A stretch of DNA of 64,000 nucleotides, taken from the IMG/VR virus record IMGVR_UViG_3300020048_000069. One strand, 5' to 3'. Below, in pieces: positions 1 to 25,976 of the stretch. The stretch is from an uncultured virus (IMG/VR IMGVR_UViG_3300020048_000069). Its lineage: Duplodnaviria > Heunggongvirae > Uroviricota > Caudoviricetes. Position 1 is the first letter of the stretch. Each line of letters starts with the position of its first letter. The notes below the pieces were generated by a model that was not told the origin of the DNA, ran no database searches, and was given only the letters and a program-made list of their open reading frames with translations. Position numbers and translations under genes: made by a program.

Positions 1-876
1 GTTTGAAACCCATTGATATTGTGCAAGACCATGATTGCATTGAAACCCACGTGGAGGGTGCAAGACCAACGTCTCTGTGAAACCCATGCAGCACGTGCAA
101 GACCATCATCCAAATGAAACCCAAGCAATGCGTGCAAGACCATCATCCAAATGAAACCCAACAAGAAAATGCAAGACCACAGATGCACTGAAACCCATTT
201 CTTTTATGCAAGACCAGTGTCATGATGAAACCCATTATAGCCATGCAAGACCATGGTACTTCTGAAACCCAGGCGCTCCGTGCAAGACTATTCCTGAGAT
301 GAAATCCATTGAGAATGTGCAAGACCGTATCTTTCTTGAAACCCAAGATGGCTGTGCAAGACCAGGCCTTTTTTGAAACCTACTACACCAATGCAAGACC
401 ATCGCAAGTTTGAAACCCATTGATATTGTGCAAGACCATGGTGATTTTGAAACCCAGGAGAAGTTTGCAAGACCAGGATTTTTCTGAAACCCACAATAGG
501 GATGCAATACCACTCTGATTCTGAAACCCATTAGAACTGTGCAAGACCACTGATAACGCGAAACCCACTTGGAGGGTGCAAGACTATTGATCCTGTGAAA
601 CCCAAAGCAGTAATGCAAGACCATTGACCGAATGAAACCCAGAAGGTTTGTGCAAGACCAGTGTTTTTTTGAAACCCACAATAGGGATGCAAGACCATCG
701 CTCCTGTGAAACCCAATACAACCATGCAATACCATTGACCGAATGAAACCCAGGTGAAGTTTGCAATACCAGGATTTTTTTGAAACCCAGTAGAACGATG
801 CAAGACTGCTGTCAAAATGAAACCCACAAGGCAAGTGCAAGTCCACTTGACGATTGAAACCCATTAGGTTTTTGCA
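1..876 (+). repeat. TIGR-like dual-repeat guide-RNA array: [TGAAACCCA-N9-TGCAAGACCA-N9]n, 37-bp period, truncated by the window's left edge
   Basis: TGAAACCCA (or a 1-mismatch variant) starts at 4, 41, 78 ... 818, 855: 24 copies exactly 37 bp apart. 23 TGCAAGACCA-type repeats lie between them, and every spacer is 9 nt. The last second-type repeat decays into TGCAAAAAAA at 873. Strand is inferred from the downstream gene and the TG...CCA repeat ends. Confidence 0.9.
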
Positions 877-908
877 AAAAAAACCACTAACCCAATTAGG
901 AGAATCTT

Positions 909-1820
909 ATGTTAATCGAAGAACTGAAAACCCAGTACGACAAAGTAAAGGTGTCGGCTATCGAAGCCGATTGCAAAAATGCACTCAGCATATCTGCGCT
1001 GAACAGGGGTGATTTCATCCTCAAGCTGTATTACCTGGAGACGACCAAGCGTTTCAAGGAAAATAAAGTGTACAAGAACGATACCTTTGAGACGTATATC
1101 ATGCGTCTCTTTAACCTGCGATACAGCACGTTCAACAGGGAGAGGTTCGCCTTTATTGCTCACCCAGTCGCAACCGCCAAGTGGGGTGCCGGATTGATTG
1201 ACAAGATCAAAAACGACTGCGGCGCCGGGAAGGTGACTGATGTTATCCAGGCCATTGATGCAATTCCGAATATTGATCGTGCTGGCATCGACAGAATTAT
1301 CTCCAGTTTTAGGAAACCAAAAGTCGAGACCAAAACGACTGTTGAGGATACCAAACATGATCTGGAGCAAACGAATATCAAGAAGCAAAAGCAGATTGCT
1401 GAATATATTCAAACTGTGAACGAATTGACGGATCAACGAGAGCGGATGAAAGATACGATCATTCGGAAGGAAGTTGAAAATGTTGAATTGTCTGCTAAAA
1501 TCAACACTCTGATTGCAGGTGTTGGTAACGTTGACGAACGAATCAGTAAACTGATGACTGAAAACGCTGAGCATATAGGATTGAATGAACTGGCAATGAG
1601 TGAAATCGAAACATTGAAAGCTGAAAATGTTAAAAATATTCAGCTTATCCATGCTTTGAAAGCTGAGAACTTCGGATATATGCAAACGATTAGAGAACAG
1701 ACTGCGACAATAGAGCGACTGAAGGCTGAAAATGGTTCGCTCAGAGGCCAGCAGTTACCGGCGTTTATGCGGCATACTACTCAGCATGGACAGTTCAGAA
1801 ATCAAAATGCTCATGTCTGA
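909..1820 (+). CDS. Hypothetical phage protein: N-terminal putative DNA-binding region (DUF3102-like) and long C-terminal coiled coil
   Basis: AGGAG RBS before the ATG; motif KVYKNDTFETYIMRLFNLRYST; heptad-rich C-terminal half. No Nop, RuvC or HNH motifs seen. Confidence 0.75.
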   Translation: MLIEELKTQYDKVKVSAIEADCKNALSISALNRGDFILKLYYLETTKRFKENKVYKNDTFETYIMRLFNLRYSTFNRERFAFIAHPVATAKWGAGLIDKIKNDCGAGKVTDVIQAIDAIPNIDRAGIDRIISSFRKPKVETKTTVEDTKHDLEQTNIKKQKQIAEYIQTVNELTDQRERMKDTIIRKEVENVELSAKINTLIAGVGNVDERISKLMTENAEHIGLNELAMSEIETLKAENVKNIQLIHALKAENFGYMQTIREQTATIERLKAENGSLRGQQLPAFMRHTTQHGQFRNQNAHV

Positions 1821-2318
1821 TCCCTGAAAACAAAAATCCCGCAATATGGGTATTTTTCTTGAATTTTTACCTATATTTTAAAGATATGTCGGTTGTGTAC
1901 TCATGTTGAAAAGGATCAGGCAAATGTCAAGTTATGCGATTTTCGTAGTCGGTGTTATTTGCGGGGTGTTTCTGACTGTGATTGTTTACGAAAACATGTT
2001 GTATCACGACGAGAAGAAGAAAAAGTGGAGGTGGTGATGATACTAAAAATTCTATATTGTTTGTTCCTGATATTGATCCATTGCAATTATTTCGTAATTT
2101 TCGGTTTCCTGGTGTTCATGTCGTTCATCAACAGTTTCAAAAGAAAGGATTACGGACATGATTTCAAAATGCACTTGTCAACATGAGTTCCAGGACGCGC
2201 GTTACGGTAAATTCAACCGCGTTTTTAACGTCTGCACAAACTCAAAAATCCGGTGTTCAGTTTGTTTGAAGCAGGACGTTTCTTCGGAAAAAACGAAAGA
2301 AAAAAAGTGAAATAGTAG

Positions 2319-2338
2319 CGAATATTCGCGAATATTCG
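2319..2338. promoter_or_regulatory. 20-bp perfect palindrome (tandem CGAATATTCG x2), candidate operator
   Basis: CGAATATTCGCGAATATTCG read directly in intergenic DNA. Confidence 0.4.
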
Positions 2339-2374
2339 TAAAGGAGAGCAAATATACTTAGTAAAATCAAATAG

Positions 2375-2415
2375 AAACGGGTGATTCAGATTTAATCTGT
2401 TTCACCCGTTTTTTT
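2375..2415. terminator. Intrinsic terminator between convergent units, possibly bidirectional
   Basis: AAACGGGTGA-TT-CAGAT-TTA-ATCTG-TT-TCACCCGTTT followed by a T run; just past the stop of the minus-strand operon. Confidence 0.75.
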
Positions 2416-2426
2416 ATAAGAGTAGT

Positions 2427-2675
2427 TCACTTCAGTTTTTTGATCCAGCTCCAGCCAATCTCTATCCCACAAGATTTGATTGCATCCATGCTCTTGATGA
2501 GTTGGCGGGATGATTTTGTAACATCTCCAATTCTCAGCAAGCCATTGTGACATCTCAATTCTGTCAGCGCGGCGGTGCGCATATCTTGTCTGGCATCGTA
2601 GGAATTGGATTCAACGGCAATCAAAAACTTACCGAATGGGGATGTTATCACAGATTTGTAAATTGCCAGCTTCAT
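2427..2675 (-). CDS. Hypothetical protein (probable start MKLAIYK)
   Basis: Last gene of a tightly packed minus-strand cluster; GGAG RBS; overlaps the upstream stop (ATGA). Confidence 0.6.
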   Translation of the reverse strand: MKLAIYKSVITSPFGKFLIAVESNSYDARQDMRTAALTELRCHNGLLRIGDVTKSSRQLIKSMDAIKSCGIEIGWSWIKKLK

Positions 2676-2992
2676 ATTTTTTCTCCAATCCAAAACGGAC
2701 AGTACTCATTTGGTTGATCCTCCACCCATTCTCCAGCGCGCTGTCTATCTATCCAATCAATCCATTCCGGAGCATCAAAATCCGGATAACATTGGCCTTG
2801 AACCGGCCATTGTTTGTAAATGGCACAACTCGGTTTCAGGCACTTCAGATGAGACGCGGTGTGTCCTTCCCAGCGTTTCAATGCTCCAATCTTCCCATTT
2901 TGGCGGCAGGAAGCTGTTTTTTTTTCGTTTTTTGCCTTACCGCCTTTGCGTCCCATAGCAGCGGCGGCAATGCTGATTTCTTCATTCTTCAT
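2672..2992 (-). CDS. Small basic protein with KGG-type motif
   Basis: AAAAMGRKGGKAKNEKKTASCRQNGKIG; ATGA overlap with the upstream gene. Confidence 0.65.
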   Translation of the reverse strand: MKNEEISIAAAAMGRKGGKAKNEKKTASCRQNGKIGALKRWEGHTASHLKCLKPSCAIYKQWPVQGQCYPDFDAPEWIDWIDRQRAGEWVEDQPNEYCPFWIGEKI

Positions 2993-3381
2993 TCGTCAGC
3001 CTCGCTATATGCAAAACTGAATTCTGGGTCTCCATGCTCCCCCCAGCCATAATGTTCCTCAATATCAGCAAGGCTGCACTTGCATCCAAAAGACAAATCC
3101 CCAGGATAAACCATTATTCCGCAAACAGGACAAAACGGATAATTTTCTCTGGATACGAATGTGCGGGTAGGATCGCCAATAGATGGGCCTGCAACACCAT
3201 TATTTATTGATCGGAAGTAATCATCCCCCAGGTTGATCCAGTTATTGTCATGGGGTATTGAGGACTTAATATCTAATGATTGCTCGCCGTCTCCCATGTT
3301 GGTAATCAGGATAATCTTTTTTGCATCGTCAAGTTGCATATTTGCTTCCTTCCCGGCGATTGCCTCGCCGGTGGTTATCAA
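2989..3381 (-). CDS. Hypothetical protein with CxxC/CxC zinc-finger-like motif
   Basis: CPVCG...CKC; packed between neighbouring genes; exact start uncertain. Confidence 0.6.
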   Translation of the reverse strand: MITTGEAIAGKEANMQLDDAKKIILITNMGDGEQSLDIKSSIPHDNNWINLGDDYFRSINNGVAGPSIGDPTRTFVSRENYPFCPVCGIMVYPGDLSFGCKCSLADIEEHYGWGEHGDPEFSFAYSEADE

Positions 3382-3383
3382 TT

Positions 3384-3578
3384 TTACGCCGTCCTGATAA
3401 CGTCGGCTTCATTAATGAGATAGGTCGCCTCGCCGATTTCTAATTCCATAAGGTCGTTCATTTCGTTAACCGAGAGATCGTCAAATTCAATATGTTTGTC
3501 AAATCTGTATCCATTCGACAAATAAACTTGGAATTCCTGCCGTTTTACTCTCTGCATTTCTCTGGCTTTTTTTAACAT
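3384..3578 (-). CDS. Hypothetical protein
   Basis: Strong RBS GCAAAGGAGAGAAC-ATG. Confidence 0.65.
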   Translation of the reverse strand: MLKKAREMQRVKRQEFQVYLSNGYRFDKHIEFDDLSVNEMNDLMELEIGEATYLINEADVIRTA

Positions 3579-3617
3579 GTTCTCTCCTTTGCCCCCTTCG
3601 GGGCGGTGATTGTATTA

Positions 3618-3794
3618 TCAAATGCTCCCTACATACGGGTTTGTATCATTATCGTTATAATCGTCATGATTCCAAACGTGAGCAATCCAGGGATACCGAT
3701 CAACAGGCCAGTCACACGAGCAGAATAATCTTGCCAACCTTTGACTCATTGGCCAGTATTGTTTCTCTTTATCTGTAAAATATACCTTTTTCAT
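3618..3794 (-). CDS. 58-aa hypothetical protein missing from the ORF track (MKKVYFTDKEKQYWPMSQRLARLFCSCDWP...)
   Basis: Translated by hand; RBS GCAAAGGAGAGAAACT-ATG matches the leader of 3384..3578. Confidence 0.6.
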   Translation of the reverse strand: MKKVYFTDKEKQYWPMSQRLARLFCSCDWPVDRYPWIAHVWNHDDYNDNDTNPYVGSI

Positions 3795-4031
3795 AGTTTC
3801 TCTCCTTTGCTTTTGGGTTCTAACTTGATTTTACACTGGTGTAATACAATTTTTAAGCCATGCCAAAACGTTTTGCTAATATTTTTTATAAACTATTGAA
3901 ACATAAGGATATATATATTTTTCATGGCAAAAACGAATGGATAACAAGTATCCAATAGCTTTACAAAACTGGATACTTGTGTAAAAAGTATGCGGATATA
4001 GTGGGTAATAAGTATCCAGTTCATTTTTTTC

Positions 4032-4059
4032 TTGACATATAGTGCAATGTGTGTATCAT
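4032..4059 (+). promoter_or_regulatory. Sigma70-type promoter for the packaging operon
   Basis: TTGACA-16 nt-TATCAT, 53 bp upstream of terS. Confidence 0.55.
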
Positions 4060-4067
4060 GTAGAAAA

Positions 4068-4109
4068 TGAGACACTTTTGAGACATGAGACACTTTGTGA
4101 GACACTTTT
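4068..4109 (+). repeat. Four TGAGACA(CTTT) direct repeats just upstream of terS
   Basis: TGAGACA at 4068, 4079, 4086 and 4098. Confidence 0.8.
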
Positions 4110-4112
4110 CCA

Positions 4113-4526
4113 ATGGCAAACTATAACGGGCTATCTCCGAAAGAAAAATTGTTTGTTACCGAATACATGATAGACCTCAATGCGTCGCAGGCATTTCATC
4201 GTGCTGGGTATAAAGGTAAACGGTTAAATGCAGGTGCGGGTAAGCTAATGTCAAAAGATAACATTCGTGAAGCAATCAAAGAAGCGCAGGAAGAAAGATC
4301 AAAAAGAACAATAATTACAATAGATAAGGTACTGACTGACATCGAGCTAATAAAAGCAGATGCTATGAAAGAGATTGATGGTAAGATGGCTGATAGAGCC
4401 GCAGCACTAAAAGGCTGTGAATTGCTCGGTAAACATCTGAAAATGTTCACCGATAAGGTCGAACACACCGGCGCTAATGGCAAACCACTATTTGAAAAAA
4501 TCACAATTGAACTGGTACATGTCTGA
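4113..4526 (+). CDS. terS: Terminase small subunit
   Basis: LSPKEKLFVTEYMIDLNASQAFHRAGY HTH start; ELLGKHLKMFTDKVEHTG end; overlaps terL. Confidence 0.92.
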   Translation: MANYNGLSPKEKLFVTEYMIDLNASQAFHRAGYKGKRLNAGAGKLMSKDNIREAIKEAQEERSKRTIITIDKVLTDIELIKADAMKEIDGKMADRAAALKGCELLGKHLKMFTDKVEHTGANGKPLFEKITIELVHV

Positions 4527-5827
4527 TGGCTGTGTTACGCGCTAAGTTTCCAGATAAAACAGGATTCCTTTTTGAGCCACATCGCTACAAATGCTTAATG
4601 GGTGGACGAGGAAGCGGAAAGAGCTATGCTATAGCGCGGTTCTTGCTGATAGAAGGATTATCTCGCAACGTTCGAGTGCTTTGCACACGAGAAGTCCAAA
4701 AGAGTATCCGGGATAGTGTTAAGCGCCTGCTTGATGATCAGATAGAAATCATGGGTCTCGGACAGCATTATCAATCTCTGGAGACAGAGATACGCGGCAA
4801 AAACGGTACGCTGTTTCTGTTTAATGGCCTATCAAATGAAACAGTTGAGAGTTTGAAAAGCTATGAAAATATTACATATTGCTGGTGCGAAGAGGCACAA
4901 AGCATAAGTAAACGTTCATGGGATGTACTAATCCCGACTATCAGAGCAGACGGTTCTGAGATTATTATGTCGTTCAATCCACAACTCGAATCCGATGAAA
5001 CATACCAGCGTTTCATAGTTAACCCCCCTCCTGATTGTGTCTCAGCGCACATGTCATATAAAGACAATCCTTGGTTTCCTGATGTGCTGGAGCAGGAGCG
5101 CAAGCACTGTGAACGAGCTAACCCAGATGATTATCCTAATATATGGCTCGGTCTTTGTAAACCCGCAGTGGCAGGCGCAATTTTTTTCAAAGAAATCCAG
5201 GCGGCACAACTTGAAAATCGTATTTGCCGAGTGCCATACGATCCACTATTAAAGGTGCATGTCGTGTTCGATCTTGGCTTCAACGATTTGATGGCGATTG
5301 GCCTCGTTCAGAAATTTCAGTCAGATATACGAATTATAAGGTATATGGAGGGTAGGGGGCAGACGCTTGCGGCCTACTCAAGCGATTTGAGAACGTTAAA
5401 TTTTAATTGGGGACGCTGCTGGTTGCCACATGACGGATATTCGAGGGATTTTAAGACCGGACACTCATCTGCTGAGATTATGCGGAGCCTGGGATGGGAC
5501 GTGCCAGATCGTTCGGAAATTGTCGAATTATCGGTTGAAGAGGGGATTCGAACAGTTCGGATGACGTTCCCGCAGATAGTTTTCGACGAAGAAAATACCG
5601 TAGATTTGGTTGAATGTCTGAAACGCTATCGGCGGCAGATAAACAGGCAGACGCAGGTAGCTGGTGCTCCGCTACATGACGATTTTTCGAATGGTGCTGA
5701 TTTTTTACGCTATACTTGCGTTAATGCGCCGCAGATGACGAATGATTCAATTGACGACTATTGGGCTGATAGCCAGAACCATCATAGATATAACAGTGAC
5801 AGCGTGAACCAATCAACGGGATACTGA
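4526..5827 (+). CDS. terL: Terminase large subunit (PBSX/Terminase_3-like)
   Basis: Walker A GGRGSGKS, Walker B CWCEEA, SFNP coupling motif, nuclease FDLG and HDD..D. Confidence 0.95.
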   Translation: MAVLRAKFPDKTGFLFEPHRYKCLMGGRGSGKSYAIARFLLIEGLSRNVRVLCTREVQKSIRDSVKRLLDDQIEIMGLGQHYQSLETEIRGKNGTLFLFNGLSNETVESLKSYENITYCWCEEAQSISKRSWDVLIPTIRADGSEIIMSFNPQLESDETYQRFIVNPPPDCVSAHMSYKDNPWFPDVLEQERKHCERANPDDYPNIWLGLCKPAVAGAIFFKEIQAAQLENRICRVPYDPLLKVHVVFDLGFNDLMAIGLVQKFQSDIRIIRYMEGRGQTLAAYSSDLRTLNFNWGRCWLPHDGYSRDFKTGHSSAEIMRSLGWDVPDRSEIVELSVEEGIRTVRMTFPQIVFDEENTVDLVECLKRYRRQINRQTQVAGAPLHDDFSNGADFLRYTCVNAPQMTNDSIDDYWADSQNHHRYNSDSVNQSTGY

Positions 5828-5828
5828 C

Positions 5829-6071
5829 ATGCAAGATTGTGATGATAGTCCAGATGATAAGATAGGCGATAAACCAGATGGTAGTCCAGATGATGATATA
5901 TATGGTATGCCTGTGTCTGCTATAGAGCAGGAGCGATATGAGAAAGAATTATTAGGCGAATTACCACCAACAAGTTTTACAACATTTTTGTGGGCGCGCA
6001 TTAAAGAAATAGCACCGGATAAGTTTGTACACAAAAATAAAATCAATATGGACTGGAGTACATTAACGTAA
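5829..6071 (+). CDS. Small acidic hypothetical protein
   Basis: Starts 1 nt after the terL stop; followed by a terminator. Confidence 0.45.
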   Translation: MQDCDDSPDDKIGDKPDGSPDDDIYGMPVSAIEQERYEKELLGELPPTSFTTFLWARIKEIAPDKFVHKNKINMDWSTLT

Positions 6072-8597: not shown

Positions 8598-9578
8598 ATG
8601 AGCGAAACAACTAAATTGACAATAATAAAATCGGTAGAAGATCGAGCAATTGAAATCATGTCCAGGATCAAGATTTTTGAAAGGGATGGGGAATCATGGA
8701 CGGATAGCTTGTCGGTGGCAGATGTATTCGGGAAAGAACACAAAGACATATTAAAAGTTATTAGAAAAATTGATGAAGAAAATCAAATAGTTGGTCTGCG
8801 TAGTTTTGCGCCGACCTTTTATATTGATAAATTCAATCGTGAACAGCCATTTTACGAGATGACCGAGACCGGCTTTTTCTCCCTGGTCGCCAGATTCAAC
8901 GACCAGAAAGACAAAGACATTTCGTTGATTCGTTCATGCTACTTCAAAGAATTTGATCGGCTGAAACGAGAAAAACGAACGGTCATAACTGGCAATGACA
9001 TTCTTATCGGTTTATCCATAAAGCTGACAAACATGCTCGAAGAACTGAAAGATCAAAACATTCAAAACAAAATTGAGCATCATGAAATCAAACATGAAGT
9101 GATTCAGTTCAATGGAAGAATTCATACGGTCGAAAAGAAAGTGGATACAGCATGTGATAAAATCAATTCGTTTGAATCCAAGTTGATTGAATTAACAGAG
9201 AAGCGACGGGATGTTTCTATGCCAAATCAACGGCTGCATATCCTATATACATTTCAAAAGTACAGTGGGAGTTGTCCATTGTGCCGAGAGTCCCTGGTGC
9301 TGGATACTCATCAGAAAAGAATTAACGATAGCGAGTTTGATCACTTCTTCGATAAGAAAAAGAATCGTCTCGATCAGACATGGCTCATTTGCCGTGACTG
9401 CAATAGTCAGATGAACGTTGCAAAGAAAGACAGAACCGGCATTGCTTATCGGGATGCTCAGATTATGTTTAACGCATATCAAATCGGCCTAACTCAATGG
9501 CAAAAGAAACGAGACAGCCAGAAAGCCTTTGATTTTTCAATGGTGCTACAAGCAGGTTGCACAAATCAACAGAATTGA
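8598..9578 (+). CDS. Rha-family regulator fused to coiled coil and C-terminal HNH-like zinc-finger nuclease domain
   Basis: DSLSVADVFGKEHKDILKVIR...YIDKFNREQPFYEMTETGFFSLV (Rha); CPLC...EFDH...N...LICRDCN (HNH). Confidence 0.8.
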   Translation: MSETTKLTIIKSVEDRAIEIMSRIKIFERDGESWTDSLSVADVFGKEHKDILKVIRKIDEENQIVGLRSFAPTFYIDKFNREQPFYEMTETGFFSLVARFNDQKDKDISLIRSCYFKEFDRLKREKRTVITGNDILIGLSIKLTNMLEELKDQNIQNKIEHHEIKHEVIQFNGRIHTVEKKVDTACDKINSFESKLIELTEKRRDVSMPNQRLHILYTFQKYSGSCPLCRESLVLDTHQKRINDSEFDHFFDKKKNRLDQTWLICRDCNSQMNVAKKDRTGIAYRDAQIMFNAYQIGLTQWQKKRDSQKAFDFSMVLQAGCTNQQN

Positions 9579-9756
9579 AAGTTAGAATTATTTTGAAATC
9601 TGTGTTAGAATTTGAAATACTTGAATTATATCCAGAAGAAGATATAATCAAAATTGATCTGGACAAAGAAGAGTTTAAGAAAGCGCCGTTTGTTTCTATG
9701 AAAGAATTCACGTTCACATGTACTCTGGAGACGGAAAAATAAGAAAGGAAAACAAC

Positions 9757-10098
9757 ATGGGTTTAGAAATGACTAACATGAAGATCAAGAAGAAGTCAGG
9801 CAAGAAATCCATTTCATTTACGACAAGTTCAGGCGGGTATCCATACGGCCTACAAATCTCTCTCGACAAAGACGTTATCAAAAAACTTCAACTCGAAGCA
9901 TAGGACTTGATAGTTGGTGATTCAATTCGATTTTGCATCACAGCAAGGATTATCAGCACATCAATTGAAGCTGACGCAAAAGATATATCTCGATGTGAGC
10001 TACAGATAACTGACATGTGTGAAATGGAAGACGAAAATGAAGATGTAACGTATTCACTCGTACCATCACTAAAAACGCAGGGTAAGAAGAAAGGATAA
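9757..10098 (+). pseudogene. Conserved small head-associated protein (YPYGL...ELQITDM type) interrupted by an in-frame TAG at 9901-9903
   Basis: AAAGGA RBS; ORFs 9718..9903 and 9907..10098 share one frame and read ...YPYGLQISLDKDVIKKLQLEA*DLIVGDSIRFCITARIISTS...ELQITDM. Confidence 0.55.
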
Positions 10099-10103
10099 AG
10101 ATC

Positions 10104-10289
10104 ATGGTAGCCAAAAAGAAGAAGACTCCGACACTTGAGGATATGGGAAGTGCAGAACCTATGCCTATGCCAACGAATAGAATGCCAGCCAACACACAGC
10201 CAATGGCTCCGCCGACAACCAGAATGCCGATCAATGGATCATCTGGTATGCCTCCCGTAGCGGTTGTAAAACCAAAAAAGAAGAAGTGA
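10104..10289 (+). CDS. Small Pro/Met-rich protein with Lys-rich ends
   Basis: AAAGGA RBS; packed between neighbouring genes. Confidence 0.55.
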   Translation: MVAKKKKTPTLEDMGSAEPMPMPTNRMPANTQPMAPPTTRMPINGSSGMPPVAVVKPKKKK

Positions 10290-10864: not shown

Positions 10865-10950
10865 GGACTACTCGAATACTCAGCGCAAAGCTGGAATATC
10901 TACGAGACCCGACAGATAACCCTTAGTGGGTGTTTGCCGGGTTTTTTTTT
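10865..10950 (+). promoter_or_regulatory. Structured leader/terminator element, copy C
   Basis: GGACTACTCGAATACTCAG..CTGG..TACGAGACCCGAC...GCCGGGT plus T run, directly before the groES RBS. Confidence 0.65.
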
Positions 10951-10968
10951 GTTTTTAGGAGGTTACTT

Positions 10969-11289
10969 ATGAGTGAGCAGATAAGCCTGCACCCAACCGG
11001 CCACCATGTGGTCGTAAAAGTAGAAGAAGCCAGCGAGAAGACATCTGGCGGTTTGTATGTGCCGATCCAAGCAAGAGAGAAGCGCATGAACGAAGGGAAC
11101 ATCGGAATACTGATTGCAGCGGGGCCTCAAGCATGGAAAGCATTTGCAGACGGCGAACCCTGGGCGAAAGTCGGGGATCGTGTGCTTTGTATCAAACATG
11201 CTGGAGTTGCTCTGGACAAAACGCCAAACATTCGGCTGATGAACGATGAAGATATTTTGGCTGTAATCGGTAGCGAGACGGAGGTTTAA
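10969..11289 (+). CDS. groES: Phage-encoded co-chaperonin GroES (Cpn10)
   Basis: LHPTGHHVVVK..EKTSGGLYVP...GILIAAGP...KVGDRV...RLMNDEDILAVI; AGGAGG RBS. Confidence 0.9.
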   Translation: MSEQISLHPTGHHVVVKVEEASEKTSGGLYVPIQAREKRMNEGNIGILIAAGPQAWKAFADGEPWAKVGDRVLCIKHAGVALDKTPNIRLMNDEDILAVIGSETEV

Positions 11290-18549: not shown

Positions 18550-20829
18550 ATGCCAACTTTAAACTACGCAAATATAGGAGTAGTGCTTAAACGGCAGTAT
18601 ATAACCGGTGTTATTACTGCGTTTGATCATGAAGAGCAAACAGCAACCGTCAGGACTATATCTCCTGCGGTTGTTGATGATCCTTTGACTCCTAAAGTGG
18701 ATGAAACGGAATACACTCCTGTTATTAAGAAAGAATACAGTGGTGTTACTTTTTATTATCATTGCAATAATAGTTCTGTTGACAGGGTAAAGGATAAATC
18801 AATAGAGGGCGGTATTACAGGTTTTGCTATTGGCGATGAAGTGATAATGGAAGGGACTGTTTCAGATACTCTTCCATTATCTACTGATTTCACAGACTTA
18901 AAGATTATCAGTCGTGCTGACGAACCGAGAAAGTGTACACGAATTAGGATTTATCAAACCTATGTTGAAGGTGGTAATTGGTATGTTGGGGTTTATGAAA
19001 AGATTAATGGTGCAGTAACTAAAACTCAAACACTTGATCCTAAAAATGACTTTAACTCGCGTTATGATATTCAGTCTAATCAACCTATTTATATCGTAGG
19101 AGCGCATTTAGACACCAATAAGTTGTTTTTGGTTATTCATTATAAAACACAAGTTCTTGGGGTTGATTATATTTGGCCGTTAATGGTTAAGTATCCTATC
19201 AGAACATTGTATAGTTTTAACGATGTTTATTACATGCCTCAGTTGCGGTGGAGCGTAAATACTGATCAGCCTTTTGCGTTTAACTGCGGAGAACCGTGGA
19301 ATAATGGGGTACTTGGTGGGGGTTTTAGAGTCTATGTGTCACATTCTCAAGTAGGCGTGACACAAGCAACTGGTCTTACTCAATACCAAATAGCAAATCT
19401 TTGGGGAAAGAATGTTAAGAGAACTGAAGAAAGTGACTATGAAGGAAGAGCTGGAACAAGATGGCTTCCTTGGTTAGTGGGGATTGCTAATAGTGGTGAT
19501 CTAAATCCTTATGGTGATTTTGCCTGGCCGAGTTTTCAAGTACAGGATAAAATGTGGCTTGATGATGTTGTGGATAATACTCCTGATTTTTTTGATGAGC
19601 ATATCCCGCATCACTTAGGGACTATTAATGATATTCCTCTTTATGGAACTCATGATGGTACAGCGTTTTGGACGGAGATGAATCCTTTTGATTATTATCA
19701 AAGATATGTTCAAGTCCGTGGGGTGGGATTCTTAGACAACAGAATGATTCTTGGTGTTTTAATTTGCTATGATGATGAGCATACACCTACTCCTTATAGT
19801 TATGAGGATTATTATCCTTCTAAGTGTGATCCGTGCCAAGATAAGTTTCTGGTTGAGTGTTACATTGCAATATTTGAAGGGCCAAATTATACCTATATTT
19901 ATCCATTTTTAATAGACGATGCAGAATCGGATTATTGGCAAACTCCAGCGTTTCTTGATTTTAAACAGACAGAACTTTTAACTTTTTCAACAATTGCTGA
20001 GTTTGAAAGAATTAATCAAATTCTTGGGTATGATGAAAGAATTTTTATCTCTTTTAGACTTCCAGCAGAGATTTATGTGTACGATGATACTGGTGCTGTT
20101 TTAGCGAATATTGCTCCTGGTGGGGATAATCTTTGTAATATGGCGATAGTAGAAAGCGCAGTTAACGGAAAGCCTTGTCTTGCTTGTCAGGCATTTGGCG
20201 GGTCAATGGTATTCTATGACATTGATACTCTTGATGTAGTTGAAACATTTGACATTCCTGATGCTTTTGTTCCTCCTATGCTTCTTCCTGGAGGTGCTGA
20301 GGAAAGACAGTCATCTTTAGTGGTTAATGTTCCTATCTTACCTAAAGCTATTTTGCATTTAGAGGCATATAGGTACGTTACAAATAGTAACATTGATGAA
20401 ATGCGAATTATTAATTATAGTTCTGTAGCGAGTAAAGCCGCGCAGGAACACGCTAACTGGTGTGTTGAGAATGGAAGATGTTCTCATGATGGCCTGAATG
20501 GAGAATGGTCTCATCTTAGGTTGTATAAATACGGGATTTTAAACACGTCTGAAAATCTTGTAATTGTTTATACTGGCGCTCCAGTAGAAGAGGCTATCGC
20601 GGCATGGAAATCTTCTCCGGGGCATGATGCAAATTTACTTTATCCAACAGACGAAGGAGTTGGGTGGGGTATGGCAACTTATCCAGTAAGTTGTACTGAA
20701 ATCATTGCTGGAGCAGGAGCATATATCCCTGAAACAGGTGGTTATACTACAGGAGATACTGTTTTTTTAGTTCCAGAAGAGTATCGTGGAAGAATGAAGA
20801 TTTATGTATTTAATGGTTATGTTTTTTAA
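18550..20829 (+). CDS. Virion-region protein with C-terminal CAP/SCP domain
   Basis: AAQEHANW...SHDG...ENL...AIAAWKSSPGHDANLL...GWG. Confidence 0.75.
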   Translation: MPTLNYANIGVVLKRQYITGVITAFDHEEQTATVRTISPAVVDDPLTPKVDETEYTPVIKKEYSGVTFYYHCNNSSVDRVKDKSIEGGITGFAIGDEVIMEGTVSDTLPLSTDFTDLKIISRADEPRKCTRIRIYQTYVEGGNWYVGVYEKINGAVTKTQTLDPKNDFNSRYDIQSNQPIYIVGAHLDTNKLFLVIHYKTQVLGVDYIWPLMVKYPIRTLYSFNDVYYMPQLRWSVNTDQPFAFNCGEPWNNGVLGGGFRVYVSHSQVGVTQATGLTQYQIANLWGKNVKRTEESDYEGRAGTRWLPWLVGIANSGDLNPYGDFAWPSFQVQDKMWLDDVVDNTPDFFDEHIPHHLGTINDIPLYGTHDGTAFWTEMNPFDYYQRYVQVRGVGFLDNRMILGVLICYDDEHTPTPYSYEDYYPSKCDPCQDKFLVECYIAIFEGPNYTYIYPFLIDDAESDYWQTPAFLDFKQTELLTFSTIAEFERINQILGYDERIFISFRLPAEIYVYDDTGAVLANIAPGGDNLCNMAIVESAVNGKPCLACQAFGGSMVFYDIDTLDVVETFDIPDAFVPPMLLPGGAEERQSSLVVNVPILPKAILHLEAYRYVTNSNIDEMRIINYSSVASKAAQEHANWCVENGRCSHDGLNGEWSHLRLYKYGILNTSENLVIVYTGAPVEEAIAAWKSSPGHDANLLYPTDEGVGWGMATYPVSCTEIIAGAGAYIPETGGYTTGDTVFLVPEEYRGRMKIYVFNGYVF

Positions 20830-20876
20830 TAAAGAAATGTCAAATATTGACAAACTTAGTAAAAGGAGTACTTATT

Positions 20877-21308
20877 ATGGCAGTTACAGTAACAGTATCA
20901 AATCATTTTAAATATCAAAAAGACAAGAAACTTGTTGATATGTCAACGGATGTATTCAAGGCGATTTTGATGAATACGACTTTTGCTTTTGACAAAGATA
21001 CTCATGCGACATTGGCGCTTGTAACCGGTGATCAACTTGCTACAAATTATGGTTATACGCAAAATGACAAAGTGTTAGCTAATGTTTCAGTAACAGAAAG
21101 TGATTCAGAGGATGCGTCAATTACTACTTGGGATAATGTAACATGGACAGCATCAGGTGGTGATATTGGGCCTACCGGAGCATGTATTATTTATGATGAT
21201 ACGACATCTGATAAGACAGTTGTTGCCTGTATTGATTTTGGTACAGATTATACGATACCAGCAACCGCAAGTTTTCAATTACAAACTCTTTCCCATAAAA
21301 GTTCGTAA
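20877..21308 (+). CDS. Virion structural protein
   Basis: D.FKAILM...GYTQ...NVTWTASGG.IG...IIYDDT...IDFG; AAGGAG RBS. Confidence 0.75.
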   Translation: MAVTVTVSNHFKYQKDKKLVDMSTDVFKAILMNTTFAFDKDTHATLALVTGDQLATNYGYTQNDKVLANVSVTESDSEDASITTWDNVTWTASGGDIGPTGACIIYDDTTSDKTVVACIDFGTDYTIPATASFQLQTLSHKSS

Positions 21309-21323
21309 TTAGGATTTAATATT

Positions 21324-24300
21324 ATGGCTGGAAATGATGCTTATACCAAACTACTGCTCCACATGGATGGTAATAATGGAGATACTGTTTTTGTGGATAG
21401 TAGTCCGTCTGCTAAAACAGTTACACGATATACCAATGCTACAATAACAACAGCAGAAAGTGTATTTGGTGGATCATCTGCGTTATTTCCTGTTACTGGT
21501 GTTGGTTATTTGAGTGTTGCTGATTCTGATGATTGGTATTTTGGCTCGGATGATTTTACAATTGATTTCTGGATCAAACGTTTTGTAAATAATTACACAA
21601 GACACGTTTGGGCGCAATATATTGATGGAAGTAATCAGATAAGACTGTATATAAATTCAACTACAAACAAGTTGATTTTTTATGTGGGATATGCTGGTAC
21701 ACCTATCGCTTATTTCGAGAGCAATTCTGCCGTTCTATCTGCAACAGACCTTGATTGGCATCATTTTGCATTGGTGCGGAGTGGAATATCCCCCGGGTGT
21801 TTAAAGGCATATAAAGATGGTATTTTAATTCCCATTACCACCACAAATGATTTAGCAAATAATTCTATGCCAAATCTTGCTTCAGTCGCCAGAATTGGTA
21901 GTCGTTCTGGACCAGATTATTTCAGCGGGTATTTGGATGAGTTAAGGATTTCAAAAGGAATTGCAAGATGGACAACAAATTTCACTCCTCCAACAGAAGC
22001 GTATTCAATTGAAGTAGAGAACATAAACATCAGTATTCCATTAATTGAATCGCTAATTACTTTTTCATTAATACCGTACAATATAACTCAAGCCGCAATT
22101 GTTCCTTTCTTCGGAGAAGAAGATACTTTTTACTCAGGCATCCCTTTTTATTTGCTTTATAAAGTTGAAGTTCCTTTAATTGAAATTATTTCAACAGCGA
22201 TCTCTGAAACTTTATTTACACCGCCGACCACTTATACAGTTTATGTTCCAAGTATAAATACTGCTATTGTATTTGATTCTTATACGACATTTTTATATCC
22301 AAGTGATTATGCGTACACATGGGAAAGAAAATATCCAATAGGATCAGATATAAGCAGTTATTATGAACACAGTTCTGCCATAAGTGATAATGGCCAAGTA
22401 ATGTTGGTTTGTGACCTCAATAATTTTTACAGGTCACTAAATGCAGGAATTACTTGGAATTCTTTCTGGCCTGCTGGTGATTCGGGACAGGTGTATGCAA
22501 AATGTTTGGCATGTAATACAGATGGATCAGTCATATTGGCAGGATATTGGGGACAAAGATTATGGAAATCTGTAGATACTGGTAATACTTGGGTTGAAGT
22601 TCGTCCTGCTGGGGATAACGATAAATATTGGAACTGTTTATCTGTAAGTAGCGATGGTTCCGTTATGGTCGCAGGAGTATTTTCAGGAAGAATTTATTTA
22701 TCTATAAATTCAGGAGTATCATGGTCAGAAATACAGCCTTATGGTGATATTAATTATGTTTGGGGGGAATGTAGTGTTTCCGGTGATGGCAGTATAATTG
22801 CTGTTGCTATTGGAGGTAATTCATATTCTGGAAGATTGTTCATATCAAACAACACAGGTTCATCCTGGGTACAGGTAATACCAACAGGAGATCGAAATAG
22901 TGAATGGAAAGTTGCGTCTGTAAGTAATACAGGACAATTTATTTTAGTCGGCGCAAATTATTTTGGCTTTTATTTATCTTCCGATTATGGATCAACTTGG
23001 TCACGAATTATAGATAGCGGAGGTTATGGGATATACGATGGTGGGTTAAGTGGTGATGGCCAGATTATATTAACCGCAGGAAAATGGGGTGATGGTGCAT
23101 CCAGAATTTCACTTTCAAGAAATTATGGCAGTACATGGGAAGTTCAAAGTGATCTTGATTATTATTCTAAGGTAAATTGCAGGACAGTTGCAGTTGCCAA
23201 AAATAAGAAAATATTTTTTATCGCTGCCAATTTAGGAGGATTTGATGTATGCACTGGAGAACCTCATTGCTATGAACAAATTATCCCTACATTTGAAGTA
23301 GAAAATAGTTTAACCTTTGAAAAACTACTTGTTTCCATAGATTCGTTTAGTATTCCCGCGTCTCAAATTAATGGTTTGATTGAATGCTCTCCGCTTTTTG
23401 GTTGGTTTATTGAAGTTCCTATTGTCGAATTGATAATTGATATACTTATTACTCCTATAGTTGCATTTGTTCTTCCAAGCATTAATACAAGTTCTATAGT
23501 ATCTTTAACTTCCAGAGTTGTTCAATCTGAAATAATAATTCCAATAATTGAAACAGTTAATTCGTTGACGATGGAAGGAAGTTTTATTGGTGATTGGATT
23601 GAAATACCAATAATTGAAAATCATATCAATATTACTTTCACTCTTCATCCTGGATGGCATGAAATTCGTCCTGGTGGGGATATAGACAGTCCAACATCTG
23701 CTTACTATGTTAGTAGTGATGCCACAACAGCACTTATTGTTGTGGGATTAACCACTTTGTATCGAACAGATGATTCGGGAGAAACTTGGCAGCCAATAGA
23801 TTTATATTCTCCTGGAGAAACAGTATATTCAGGATACGGCCCTTGCGCGGTTAGCGGCAATGGTCAAGTTATGATTGTCACAATTTCTGAGTATTCTACG
23901 CGTAAAATATTTATTTCAAGAGATCGAGGTGTCTCATGGGCTGAAATTAATCTTTACCAAATGTGGATTGATGTGTCCATAAATTATGATGGTTCCATTA
24001 TTTTGGTAAGTGGGGATTATAGCTACGCTGGAAAATTATATTTATCTAAAGATATAGGAAACACATGGTCTCAGGTTCTTCCTTTAAATGCTGGTTGGCT
24101 CCATGCAGTAAGCGGAGACGGCTTAGCAATACTTGCAGGATATACATCCTTATACTTATCTATTGATTCGGGGGTTACATGGGATTTAATTGCTCCAGCA
24201 GGGGTGATTACAGGATTTTGGAAGGATATGTATCTTAACTATGATGGTTCTGTTATGTTAGCAAAGGTTCATACAGAACTAAAAAGTCAGGATCGTTTTT

Positions 24301-25976
24301 ATAAATCCTTAAATAGTGGAATAACTTGGGAAGAAGTAATTCCGACAGGTTTTGTTTATTCTGATGAGTGGGTTCCTTACAGTCAATCATGGAGTTGTGC
24401 AATAAGTGAGGATGGAGTAAAATTATTAGAAGGAAGATATGGAGGACGATTATATTTATCCCTTGATGAAGGAGAAACATGGGACGAAAAATTTCCTGTA
24501 GGATCACTTGATCTGAATTGGGATTTTGTTAAGTTTAATGGAGATGATTTACTTGCCATAGCTTTTGATGGTGATGCTCAAACAAGAACTTTATATCAGT
24601 CATTTGATGGAGGTTCCGTTTGGTCTGCTATGACAGCAGCACATCATGCTCACTTAGGGTGGTCATCGTGTGCTATGTCTGACGATGGTCGGATTATGTT
24701 GGCTGGAGGATACGCTGAACGCCTTTATTTATCAACCAATTCAGGACAAACATGGTCAGAAACACGTCCTTTTTATAATACTGATGCACAGTGGTCTTCT
24801 TGTGCTATGAGTTTTGATGGGCAATATATGATTGCAGAATCATATATTCCATTAATTGGCCCTGTACTTTATGTTTCAAATGATACCGGGGATAGTTGGA
24901 ATATTATTCCTCCTGCTTGGGATATAGTAGATGATGGCACTGATCCAGATTTTCCTTACGGGATTGCAGATGTATTTTGCAATTCAGTATCAATAAGTAA
25001 AGATGGAAGAACCATGCTTGCAGCTTACGGTTCTTTTTGGGTAGGTTCCAAAGTATATTTATCTACAAATTATGGAGTTTCTTGGCGTGAAGTTATGCCA
25101 GCGGGAGATGTTTATAGAAATTGGGAAGAAACAGAGATTAATTATAATGGTTCAGTAATGTACACAGCTACCATGGATAATATTTATCGTTCTTATGATT
25201 CAGTTGTGTGGACAGATATAACTCCAATTGATATGACTGAATGGTGTATCTCTTTAAGTATTAATTTAAATGGTCAGATTATTTATGCTGGAACGTATAA
25301 TGGGGACTTGTTTAAGTCGGATGACTTTGGGGTTACTTGGATAAAGGTGTTTCCAGCTGGTGTTGGAGTATATAATTGGTATTCTGTGTCGATGAACAGT
25401 GCAGCCAGTATTATACTTGCATCAGCACATGGAAATCGTGTTTATATGTCAATTGATTCAGGTGTTACCTGGGCGGATCAAGTTATTCAAGGTAATATTA
25501 ATGGAAACTGGTATTTAAGCGCATTAAGTGATGATGGAAGTGTTAGGATAGCAGGAACAGATAATAACAGAATATACTCCTATAGCATTGTTCAAGACAC
25601 GCTTCCTATTATTCCTGTAGAAGTTTCTAAGATTCCAATTACGTCACTATTATTTATTAGAAGCAATTTTAATCAAGTTTCTACGCAATCTTCATTTGCT
25701 CAAATAGAAATACAAACAGTTAATCCTGTTTTACAGCTAACTAAGTTATCTAATTCTGACAGCGTACAAAGATATATCTTGACTGGTAGTGAGGAAAGTT
25801 TATCGGATGCAGCACTTCCAATAACTGATTTTAAATACAGCGGATCTCAAATATCAACTGCTGAAGTATCACTTTTACCTAAACAAATAATTGCAGGACA
25901 AGATCATGATATACCTTATGGTTATGGCAGGTTTTGCGAATTAAACCCAACATCTATTTTTTGTCCTGTGGTATAA
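21324..25976 (+). CDS. Large adhesin-like protein: LamG/concanavalin domain plus many BNR/Asp-box beta-propeller repeats
   Basis: TKLLLHMDG...DFTIDFW...WHHFALVR...GYLDELRISKGIARWT.NFTPP; more than 15 S.D/N.G.TW repeats. Confidence 0.85.
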   Translation: MAGNDAYTKLLLHMDGNNGDTVFVDSSPSAKTVTRYTNATITTAESVFGGSSALFPVTGVGYLSVADSDDWYFGSDDFTIDFWIKRFVNNYTRHVWAQYIDGSNQIRLYINSTTNKLIFYVGYAGTPIAYFESNSAVLSATDLDWHHFALVRSGISPGCLKAYKDGILIPITTTNDLANNSMPNLASVARIGSRSGPDYFSGYLDELRISKGIARWTTNFTPPTEAYSIEVENINISIPLIESLITFSLIPYNITQAAIVPFFGEEDTFYSGIPFYLLYKVEVPLIEIISTAISETLFTPPTTYTVYVPSINTAIVFDSYTTFLYPSDYAYTWERKYPIGSDISSYYEHSSAISDNGQVMLVCDLNNFYRSLNAGITWNSFWPAGDSGQVYAKCLACNTDGSVILAGYWGQRLWKSVDTGNTWVEVRPAGDNDKYWNCLSVSSDGSVMVAGVFSGRIYLSINSGVSWSEIQPYGDINYVWGECSVSGDGSIIAVAIGGNSYSGRLFISNNTGSSWVQVIPTGDRNSEWKVASVSNTGQFILVGANYFGFYLSSDYGSTWSRIIDSGGYGIYDGGLSGDGQIILTAGKWGDGASRISLSRNYGSTWEVQSDLDYYSKVNCRTVAVAKNKKIFFIAANLGGFDVCTGEPHCYEQIIPTFEVENSLTFEKLLVSIDSFSIPASQINGLIECSPLFGWFIEVPIVELIIDILITPIVAFVLPSINTSSIVSLTSRVVQSEIIIPIIETVNSLTMEGSFIGDWIEIPIIENHINITFTLHPGWHEIRPGGDIDSPTSAYYVSSDATTALIVVGLTTLYRTDDSGETWQPIDLYSPGETVYSGYGPCAVSGNGQVMIVTISEYSTRKIFISRDRGVSWAEINLYQMWIDVSINYDGSIILVSGDYSYAGKLYLSKDIGNTWSQVLPLNAGWLHAVSGDGLAILAGYTSLYLSIDSGVTWDLIAPAGVITGFWKDMYLNYDGSVMLAKVHTELKSQDRFYKSLNSGITWEEVIPTGFVYSDEWVPYSQSWSCAISEDGVKLLEGRYGGRLYLSLDEGETWDEKFPVGSLDLNWDFVKFNGDDLLAIAFDGDAQTRTLYQSFDGGSVWSAMTAAHHAHLGWSSCAMSDDGRIMLAGGYAERLYLSTNSGQTWSETRPFYNTDAQWSSCAMSFDGQYMIAESYIPLIGPVLYVSNDTGDSWNIIPPAWDIVDDGTDPDFPYGIADVFCNSVSISKDGRTMLAAYGSFWVGSKVYLSTNYGVSWREVMPAGDVYRNWEETEINYNGSVMYTATMDNIYRSYDSVVWTDITPIDMTEWCISLSINLNGQIIYAGTYNGDLFKSDDFGVTWIKVFPAGVGVYNWYSVSMNSAASIILASAHGNRVYMSIDSGVTWADQVIQGNINGNWYLSALSDDGSVRIAGTDNNRIYSYSIVQDTLPIIPVEVSKIPITSLLFIRSNFNQVSTQSSFAQIEIQTVNPVLQLTKLSNSDSVQRYILTGSEESLSDAALPITDFKYSGSQISTAEVSLLPKQIIAGQDHDIPYGYGRFCELNPTSIFCPVV

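Follow-up and report, generated by a model that had tools for sequence, protein, structure and literature searches.

A dual-repeat TIGR array in tailed-phage DNA and its probable nuclease-less TasA effector

Anatomy of the array

The left end of a 64,000-nt stretch of uncultured-virus DNA (IMG/VR record IMGVR_UViG_3300020048_000069; the whole stretch is called the window here) contained a long series of short repeats and spacers, followed by a gene at 909-1820 and by genes of a tailed phage. The series had the anatomy of a dual-repeat TIGR array, and homologous arrays in relatives were accompanied by genes for TasA, a Nop-domain protein without a nuclease. The array and its closing repeat were located as follows.

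1..886, + strand, dual-repeat TIGR array, delimited by unit-by-unit cutting and pattern search; the left end of the window truncates it
873..886, + strand, last edge repeat of the array, in degenerate form (TGCAA, an A-run, CCA), from direct reading

Cutting the window into 37-nt units from base 4 showed that bases 4-891 formed 24 units, all in register and with zero indels, as a sequence-only reading of this DNA had described for its strict 37-bp period. Each unit was composed of a loop repeat of 9 nt, a spacer of 9 nt, an edge repeat of 10 nt, and another spacer of 9 nt. The 24 loop repeats were located on the + strand at 4+37k and had the consensus TGAAACCCA; 21 were exact copies and three, at 300, 374, and 559, were one-mismatch variants. 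The 23 edge repeats, on the same strand at 22+37k, had the consensus TGCAAGACCA, with 15 exact copies and eight copies carrying 1-2 mismatches (at 281, 318, 503, 577, 725, 762, 799, and 836). The earlier count of 24 and 23 alternating repeats was reached only with these variants included, whereas the spacer length of exactly 9 nt was found in all 47 half-spacers. The array thereby offered 23 complete guide units, each running from one edge through spacer A, the loop, and spacer B to the next edge. When the whole 64 kb was searched with the pattern loop-N9-edge at two mismatches or fewer, 23 matches (14 exact) were obtained, every one of them on the + strand and within 4-845, and no match was found elsewhere in the 64 kb (0.00 expected from 100 shuffles).

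In published dual-repeat TIGR arrays, two repeats of 8-12 nt alternate, separated by 9-nt spacers; read along the transcribed strand, each repeat opens with box D (UG) and closes with box C (CCA), the loop repeat being A-rich and the edge repeat containing an additional C...G that can pair (PMC12045711). The array in the window fitted this definition, in agreement with the identification first made from the letters alone. Both consensus repeats started with TG and ended with CCA on the + strand, as had been noted, and the loop consensus was UG-AAAC-CCA, A-rich between the boxes. The edge repeat UGCAAGACCA had C3 and G6, like UGCGAGCCA of the characterised TaTIGR array, and these two bases may pair; the G was missing from three edge copies (TGCAATACCA). 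The box motifs were all intact in 17 of the 23 guides, and box C or box D was altered in the other six, owing to changes in the edges at 281, 318, 577, and 799 and the loops at 374 and 559.

Published arrays close with a truncated edge repeat, typically followed by a terminator (PMC12045711). The closing repeat at 873-886 had its like in the homologous array of the related contig L003, which ended with TGCAAAACCA, and the array ends also supported the assignment of the two repeats as edge and loop, as the arrays of the window and of L003 both ended in an edge-type repeat and that of L003 also began with one. On the other side, the array extends left of the window, since GTT at 1-3 is what remains of a spacer. 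Logan contigs of three public runs (X1-X3), which may stem from the source sample, matched parts of the array at 0 differences (e.g. 150-436 and 457-1159), and the match at 457-1159 spanned the junction of the array with the next gene. In two of these runs, a loose end carried a further repeat unit and reached up to 255 nt left of base 20, which fits a longer array. The RNA of the array showed no stable fold (z -0.71), Rfam gave no match to the array, and no tRNAs were found. An ORF (open reading frame) of 209 aa ran through the array on the opposite strand at 235-864, and similar ORFs lay over the L003 array; owing to the period of 37 nt, the ORF at 235-864 was considered a by-product of the repeats and not a gene. 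Such ORFs could mislead automatic annotation.

The closest characterised array was that of TaTIGR-TasR from a Thermoproteota archaeon (Faure et al. 2025, PMC12045711; 9MTY), with the loop TGAAACCCA and the edge TGCGAGCCA (Table S1/S3 of that paper). Its loop was letter-for-letter that of the window, and its 9+9-nt spacers and UG/CCA boxes were also the same. Comparison of the edges TGCGAGCCA and TGCAAGACCA revealed the change G4A and one inserted A in the window, and the unit was 37 instead of 36 nt long because of this inserted base, which gave an edge repeat of 10 nt. The 37-nt variant that had been proposed is thus real but small. Among other repeat-based systems, CRISPR arrays shared the repeat-spacer logic with the window array; however, CRISPR spacers are about 30 nt long instead of 9 nt, the window array had two different repeats, none of them palindromic, and no cas genes were seen. 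Box C/D snoRNPs and IS110 bridge RNAs, in which a Nop domain binds box C/D motifs, are likened to TIGR systems in PMC12045711.

TasA as the candidate effector

A Nop-domain gene near the array had been predicted, of the type TasA, TasR, or TasH. No such gene was found in the window, where Pfam detected no Nop-type protein among the 34 larger ORFs; on a syntenic contig, such a gene was located directly upstream of the homologous array. A repeat-pattern scan of genome contigs found only L001-L003, and L003 (refetched as L069), a 37.6-kb contig of a metagenome-assembled genome (MAG), carried the same two repeats. In this contig, a 307-aa ORF (9267-10190) was followed after a gap of about 40 nt by the array and then by a 48%-identical homologue of the window gene 909-1820. 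The 307-aa protein matched TaTasR (9mty_A, E 9.2e-26) and TasH (21kl_A, E 1.7e-7). The chain 9mty_A corresponds to TaTasR, since the code 9MTY is given in the text of PMC12045711 and the 331 residues stated there for TaTasR equal the chain size. Because the alignment to TaTasR began only at TasR residue 126, the RuvC part was missing and the protein was a TasA; the predicted effector was thus narrowed to the nuclease-less type, and TasR and TasH dropped out. L003 TasA contained a CxxC...CxxC insertion, and Pfam returned only zinc-ribbon-type noise for the TasA candidates. Its relatives in a large protein collection numbered at least 251, about 275 aa in length, none with a recorded Pfam domain. 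GenBank phages held only two distant partial matches to TasA.

One relative, P0008 (333 aa), was 60% identical to L003 TasA and matched 9mty_A at E 8.3e-29 from TasR residue 115 on and 21kl_A at E 2e-5. In the TasA candidates, the alignment with TasR started at query residue 19-26, with about 20-25 residues before it. P0008 was recorded on one contig of 96,232 bp (JGI/IMG, ENA), and exact look-up of the product of the window gene 909-1820 and of the large terminase placed these also on a 96,232-bp contig from the same sources. P0008 is therefore most probably the TasA of the window phage; its gene would be situated in the 32 kb that the window does not cover and, judging by synteny, immediately left of base 1. 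The residues Y289 and H296 of SpTasH, which process pre-tigRNA (PMC13421893, section 15), aligned with Y256/H263 of L003 TasA and Y280/H287 of P0008. These Tyr and His positions did not vary in two alignments, of 30 (A1) and 28 (A5) relatives, and in P0008 both the pair and the zinc-ribbon cysteines were intact.

Single-protein searches of a viral contig collection gave no related loci for L003 TasA or the gene 909-1820 product. A 30-row TasA alignment led to 54 loci in viral contigs and 12 in genome contigs, 66 in total, and 62 of these 66 loci had a 36- or 37-nt periodic stretch. The consensus repeats extracted at the TasA loci were mostly TGAAACCCA with TGCGAGCCA or TGCAAGCCA. A 37-nt period with a 10-nt edge (TGC[AG]AGACCA) was present in L069, L060, L020/L021, and L075, so that the 37-nt unit is a minor recurring variant in a small set of relatives. 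In L003/L069 and L060, tasA was followed directly by an array with the two repeats of the window. Relatives of the window-type TasA clade are included in the Data S1 alignment of PMC12045711. Repeat-pattern scans of viral and metagenome contig collections gave only single chance-like matches, and window 1-6000 matched no GenBank phage by megablast. A second short array with four loop and five edge repeats of the same consensus was seen at about 709-888 of L002 (reverse complement), another contig of the MAG bin of L003; no tasA was visible on this 1.5-kb contig.

The proteins of characterised TIGR systems were related to these TasA proteins to different degrees. The Nop/coiled-coil part of TaTasR was homologous to them, whereas its N-terminal RuvC nuclease was missing from them, and the CxxC...CxxC zinc-ribbon insertion distinguished the TasA clade from TaTasR. 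SpTIGR-TasH of Salicola phage CGphi29 (PMC13421893; PDB 21kl, 9w03) was phage-borne and dual-repeat, like the array in the window, and the C-terminal Nop region of TasH was the part that aligned with the TasA proteins; as described there, it differs in its HNH nuclease, its 8+8-nt spacers, and its repeats. MbTasA and FpTasA, which are nuclease-less, belong by their descriptions to the same effector class, with DNA binding but no cleavage as the expected mode of action, and have served in tests of RNA-guided repression or activation (preprints 10.64898/2026.09.09.750476 and 10.64898/2026.08.11.744272), and TasA proteins are presented as RNA-guided repressors in section 12 of the former.

We consider it very probable that window 1-886 is the 3' part of a tailed-phage dual-repeat TIGR array and that it serves, together with a nuclease-less TasA, for binding of DNA, or repression, under RNA guidance and without cutting. 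The array would be transcribed on the + strand, probably together with the upstream tasA and the downstream gene 909-1820, and cuts inside each edge repeat would produce tigRNAs of about 37 nt, each with spacer A (9 nt) and a loop repeat as well as spacer B (9 nt). The precursor would probably be cut by TasA itself through the conserved Tyr/His pair, and the UG/CCA boxes would be bound by a dimer of nuclease-less TasA, most probably P0008. The complex may then bind double-stranded DNA in which one strand reads 5'-spacer B plus the reverse complement of spacer A-3'. Binding and a transcriptional block rather than cleavage would be expected because no nuclease domain is present.

The gene after the array and its phage context

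The array was separated by 22 nt from the next gene, which was annotated together with its upstream motif.

909..1820, + strand, conserved TasA-linked gene ('gene X', 303 aa), from tblastn homologues beside tasA, AF2 models, and structure comparison
898..903, + strand, AGGAGA motif resembling a ribosome-binding site, 5 nt upstream of the ATG that starts gene 909-1820, from direct reading

Homologues of gene 909-1820 were detected by tblastn in 54 of the 66 TasA loci, mostly over the first ~135 residues. After a crude de-replication of TasA at 95%, which left 49 groups, a homologue was present in 38 groups, downstream of tasA and on the same strand in 34 and upstream in four; three of the 11 groups without a match had little downstream DNA. 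A narrower alignment of the gene found seven loci, all on contigs previously found with TasA, a search that was circular because the pattern was derived from the same sequences.

The protein matched no Pfam family, its only PHROGs match was in the coiled-coil range (E 0.00096), and its profile found only coiled coils among PDB sequences. The AF2 models, with a pLDDT of 88.5 (whole protein) and 95.9 (residues 1-140), showed an eight-helix N-terminal domain (residues 1-133) followed by a helix of ~130 residues, with a coiled coil at 149-282. Foldseek found nothing in the PDB at E <= 0.001 for the whole model or the N-terminal domain, BFVD had nothing at E <= 0.001 for the model, and VIA-align of the whole model returned only coiled coils. 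With an exhaustive aligner, the N-terminal domain gave weak top matches to the ParB DNA-binding domain (6s6h_B, Z 6.3, rmsd 3.9, 97 aligned), followed by ones to KorB (1r71 and 8qa8, Z 5.1), Spo0J (1vz0, Z 4.9), and SopB (3mkw, Z 4.4). In the ESM Atlas, the ParB-family HTH part reached TM 0.55 over 115 residues, and DUF3102 clusters reached 0.91-0.92. These leads from predicted structures, each weak alone and mutually consistent, weakly suggest a ParB/KorB-type N-terminal domain. The models were all-helical, and no nuclease fold was seen in them.

A parB-like gene, tasParB, is described as operonic with tasA, sometimes with the array between both genes (PMC12045711, section 44). Set beside tasParB by its description, gene 909-1820 is probably a partner gene of this type. 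The TIGR-TasA/tasParB operons of Faure et al. have a nuclease-less TasA, a dual-repeat array between tasA and the second gene, and repeats of about 10 nt, as found in L003, and a partner protein that dimerises through its C-terminal part was counted as a further likeness. Unlike ParB, however, this product was without an N-terminal CTPase-type domain and had no Pfam ParB match.

The rest of the window consisted of tailed-phage DNA, which bore out the claim that the array was phage-borne. Pfam identified a small and a large terminase subunit, a capsid, an SU10-type adaptor, a Rha regulator, and Cpn10, and PHROGs identified a portal. The large terminase had 48-50% identity with its counterparts in Pseudomonas phages H66 and LKA5 and in an uncultured Caudoviricetes record. 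Two further features were annotated.

36320-57733, + strand, 7137-aa polyvalent protein with LPD1, LPD23, LPD38, SNF2/ResIII-type helicase, Helicase_C, and methyltransferase domains (Pfam)
10930-11289, + strand, Cpn10 (GroES-like) co-chaperonin (Pfam, E 4e-10)

Giant polyvalent proteins are of a kind found in phages and conjugative elements. Two large presumed tail or host-contact proteins were seen at 18550-25976 (+ strand), one of 759 aa with a CAP/cysteine-rich secretory domain and one of 1550 aa with Sortilin-Vps10/BNR repeats (Pfam).

Spacer turnover, targets, and competing explanations

The spacers of the array recurred more often than expected. Seven pairs of half-spacers differing by no more than one base were found among the 47, compared with 0.25 expected and a maximum of three in 1000 letter shuffles, and in each of the seven both members came from one slot type (two A or two B spacers) between 13 and 872. 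The recurring half-spacers included TTGATATTG, TCATCCAAA, CAATAGGGA, and TTGACCGAA, with two copies each. One neighbour pair (a B and the following A) recurred jointly, and the other recurrences were single. This pattern would fit half-guides being duplicated and re-assorted as the short repeats recombine. X4, a freshwater-metagenome relative from the runs of another study, was about 97% identical to the window over 878-1923 (28 differences) and, as seen over window 392-1923, had the same repeats with mostly different spacers, which indicates that the array content is in turnover between close relatives. One unit was observed twice in L069 (6552-6600 and 6885-6935), with the degenerate loop TGAAAACTA or TGAAAACCG and then the spacer AGAACCAAA; the start of this unit was also present in the X4 array, so that the guide may be conserved or may have been copied repeatedly.

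Targets were searched for in the geometry of TasR substrates, of which one strand reads 5'-spacer B plus the reverse complement of spacer A-3' (Table S3, PMC12045711) and in which TasR tolerates gaps of 1-2 bp (section 7 of the same paper). Such a search for adjacent 9+9 split-strand matches had been proposed with the sequence-only reading, and it yielded none above chance. In the window outside the array, six matches were found in the published geometry, all with three mismatches, and nine over both geometries, compared with about six expected by calculation. When 59 guides from four arrays were compared with 676 kb of fetched loci, 15 matches at two mismatches or fewer were obtained, compared with 22.9 per mispaired replicate. 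A scan of 105 guides from eight arrays against 429 kb, which included five whole relative phage contigs and, for the G001 arrays, three parsed guides of roughly two dozen units, gave 0 matches at 0-1 mismatch in the correct geometry and 12 at two mismatches, compared with 8.95 in mispaired controls. Since the scans of the window, the 676 kb, and the 429 kb stayed at control level, self-regulation of the genomes of these phages was not supported. Against the array itself, the guides of the window gave three matches at three mismatches (3.4 in mispaired controls), and no 6-mer was common to any spacer and either repeat or its complement.

In viral contigs, guide 1, the first complete one of the array (spacer A 32-40, spacer B 50-58), had one exact 18-nt match in the split-strand geometry, and guide 2 had 0 matches. 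The site was located at 9825-9842 on the minus strand of G006 (IMGVR_UViG_3300047552_000557, 45.5 kb), inside a 4000-aa ORF. G006 and the window had two features in common, a capsid homologue (298 aa aligned at 23% identity, E 9e-11) and one domain of the giant protein (118 aa, 49% identity), and no other guide of the window matched G006 below three mismatches. The pattern of guide 1 also had 11 exact matches in 596 Gb of prokaryote genomes (about 0.02/Gb), in unrelated taxa and without common flanks, and because of these scattered matches the single viral match was regarded as being at chance level. That the site in G006 is a natural TIGR-TasA target is improbable; if it were one, the match would hint at one phage silencing a giant early or anti-defence gene of a rival phage, and the half-spacer recurrence would then reflect how guides are re-assorted when the short repeats recombine.

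Several results, including the chance-level scans of the window and of the 429 kb, spoke against an array that works with TasA. No Tas gene was found in the 64-kb window (tblastn best E 1.6), and the assignment of P0008 to the contig of the window rests on the equal size of 96,232 bp and the same sources, not on read sequence. The unit of the window was 37 nt, whereas dual-repeat guides are uniformly 36 nt according to the discussion of a 2026 preprint (10.64898/2026.09.09.750476). By a simple scan, no terminator-like or promoter-like site was seen at the array end, where published arrays typically have a terminator. Since six of the 23 guides had altered boxes and the variants accumulated toward the 3' end, part of the array may be decaying. 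This decay could be general if the phage had no working TasA and the TIGR-derived array were an orphan, its guides being unused or served in trans by a co-infecting element. The absence of a tas gene from the window, the variants in eight of 23 edge and three of 24 loop repeats with their concentration in the 3' half, and target scans at chance level would fit such an orphan. Nevertheless, a full-length TasA relative with intact cysteines and Tyr/His pair, P0008, was recorded on a 96,232-bp contig from the same sources as the window proteins, the period was exact over 24 units with most guides retaining intact boxes (17 of 23), and X4, with the same repeats and other spacers, points to active turnover. 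An orphan array was thus judged quite improbable.

The other functional alternative is a DNA-cutting system with a nuclease recruited by TasA or by the product of gene 909-1820. TasR and TasH, whose repeats are near-identical, are nucleases (PMC12045711, section 7), and the linked gene has no assigned function. The TasA candidates, however, aligned only from TasR residue 115-126, had about 20-25 residues before this point and no RuvC or HNH, and showed nothing except zinc-ribbon noise in Pfam; the gene 909-1820 product was all-helical, ParB-HTH-like with a coiled coil, and without a nuclease fold. We regard cutting as very improbable. That the repeats do not form a guide array and represent a coding repeat (the 209-aa minus-strand ORF at 235-864 spans them), replication iterons, or a packaging-site repeat (the small terminase gene lies about 3.2 kb downstream of the array) has a negligible probability, because 37 is not a multiple of 3 and any frame rotates through the repeats, similar spurious ORFs lie over the L003 array, a TIGR array whose processing was shown by experiment has these repeats, and they co-occur with TasA genes at 62 of 66 related loci.

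TIGR-Tas systems were first described in 2025, and the array in the window is a further example that leaves their general picture unchanged. The recurrence of half-spacers and the different spacers of X4 give modest clues to the evolution of such arrays. In this TasA clade, a gene for a coiled-coil protein with a ParB-HTH-like domain regularly forms a third component, and the locus contributes a natural array that is long (at least 24 units), has repeats almost identical to those of TaTasR, the best-studied system, and very probably has a nuclease-less TasA as its effector.

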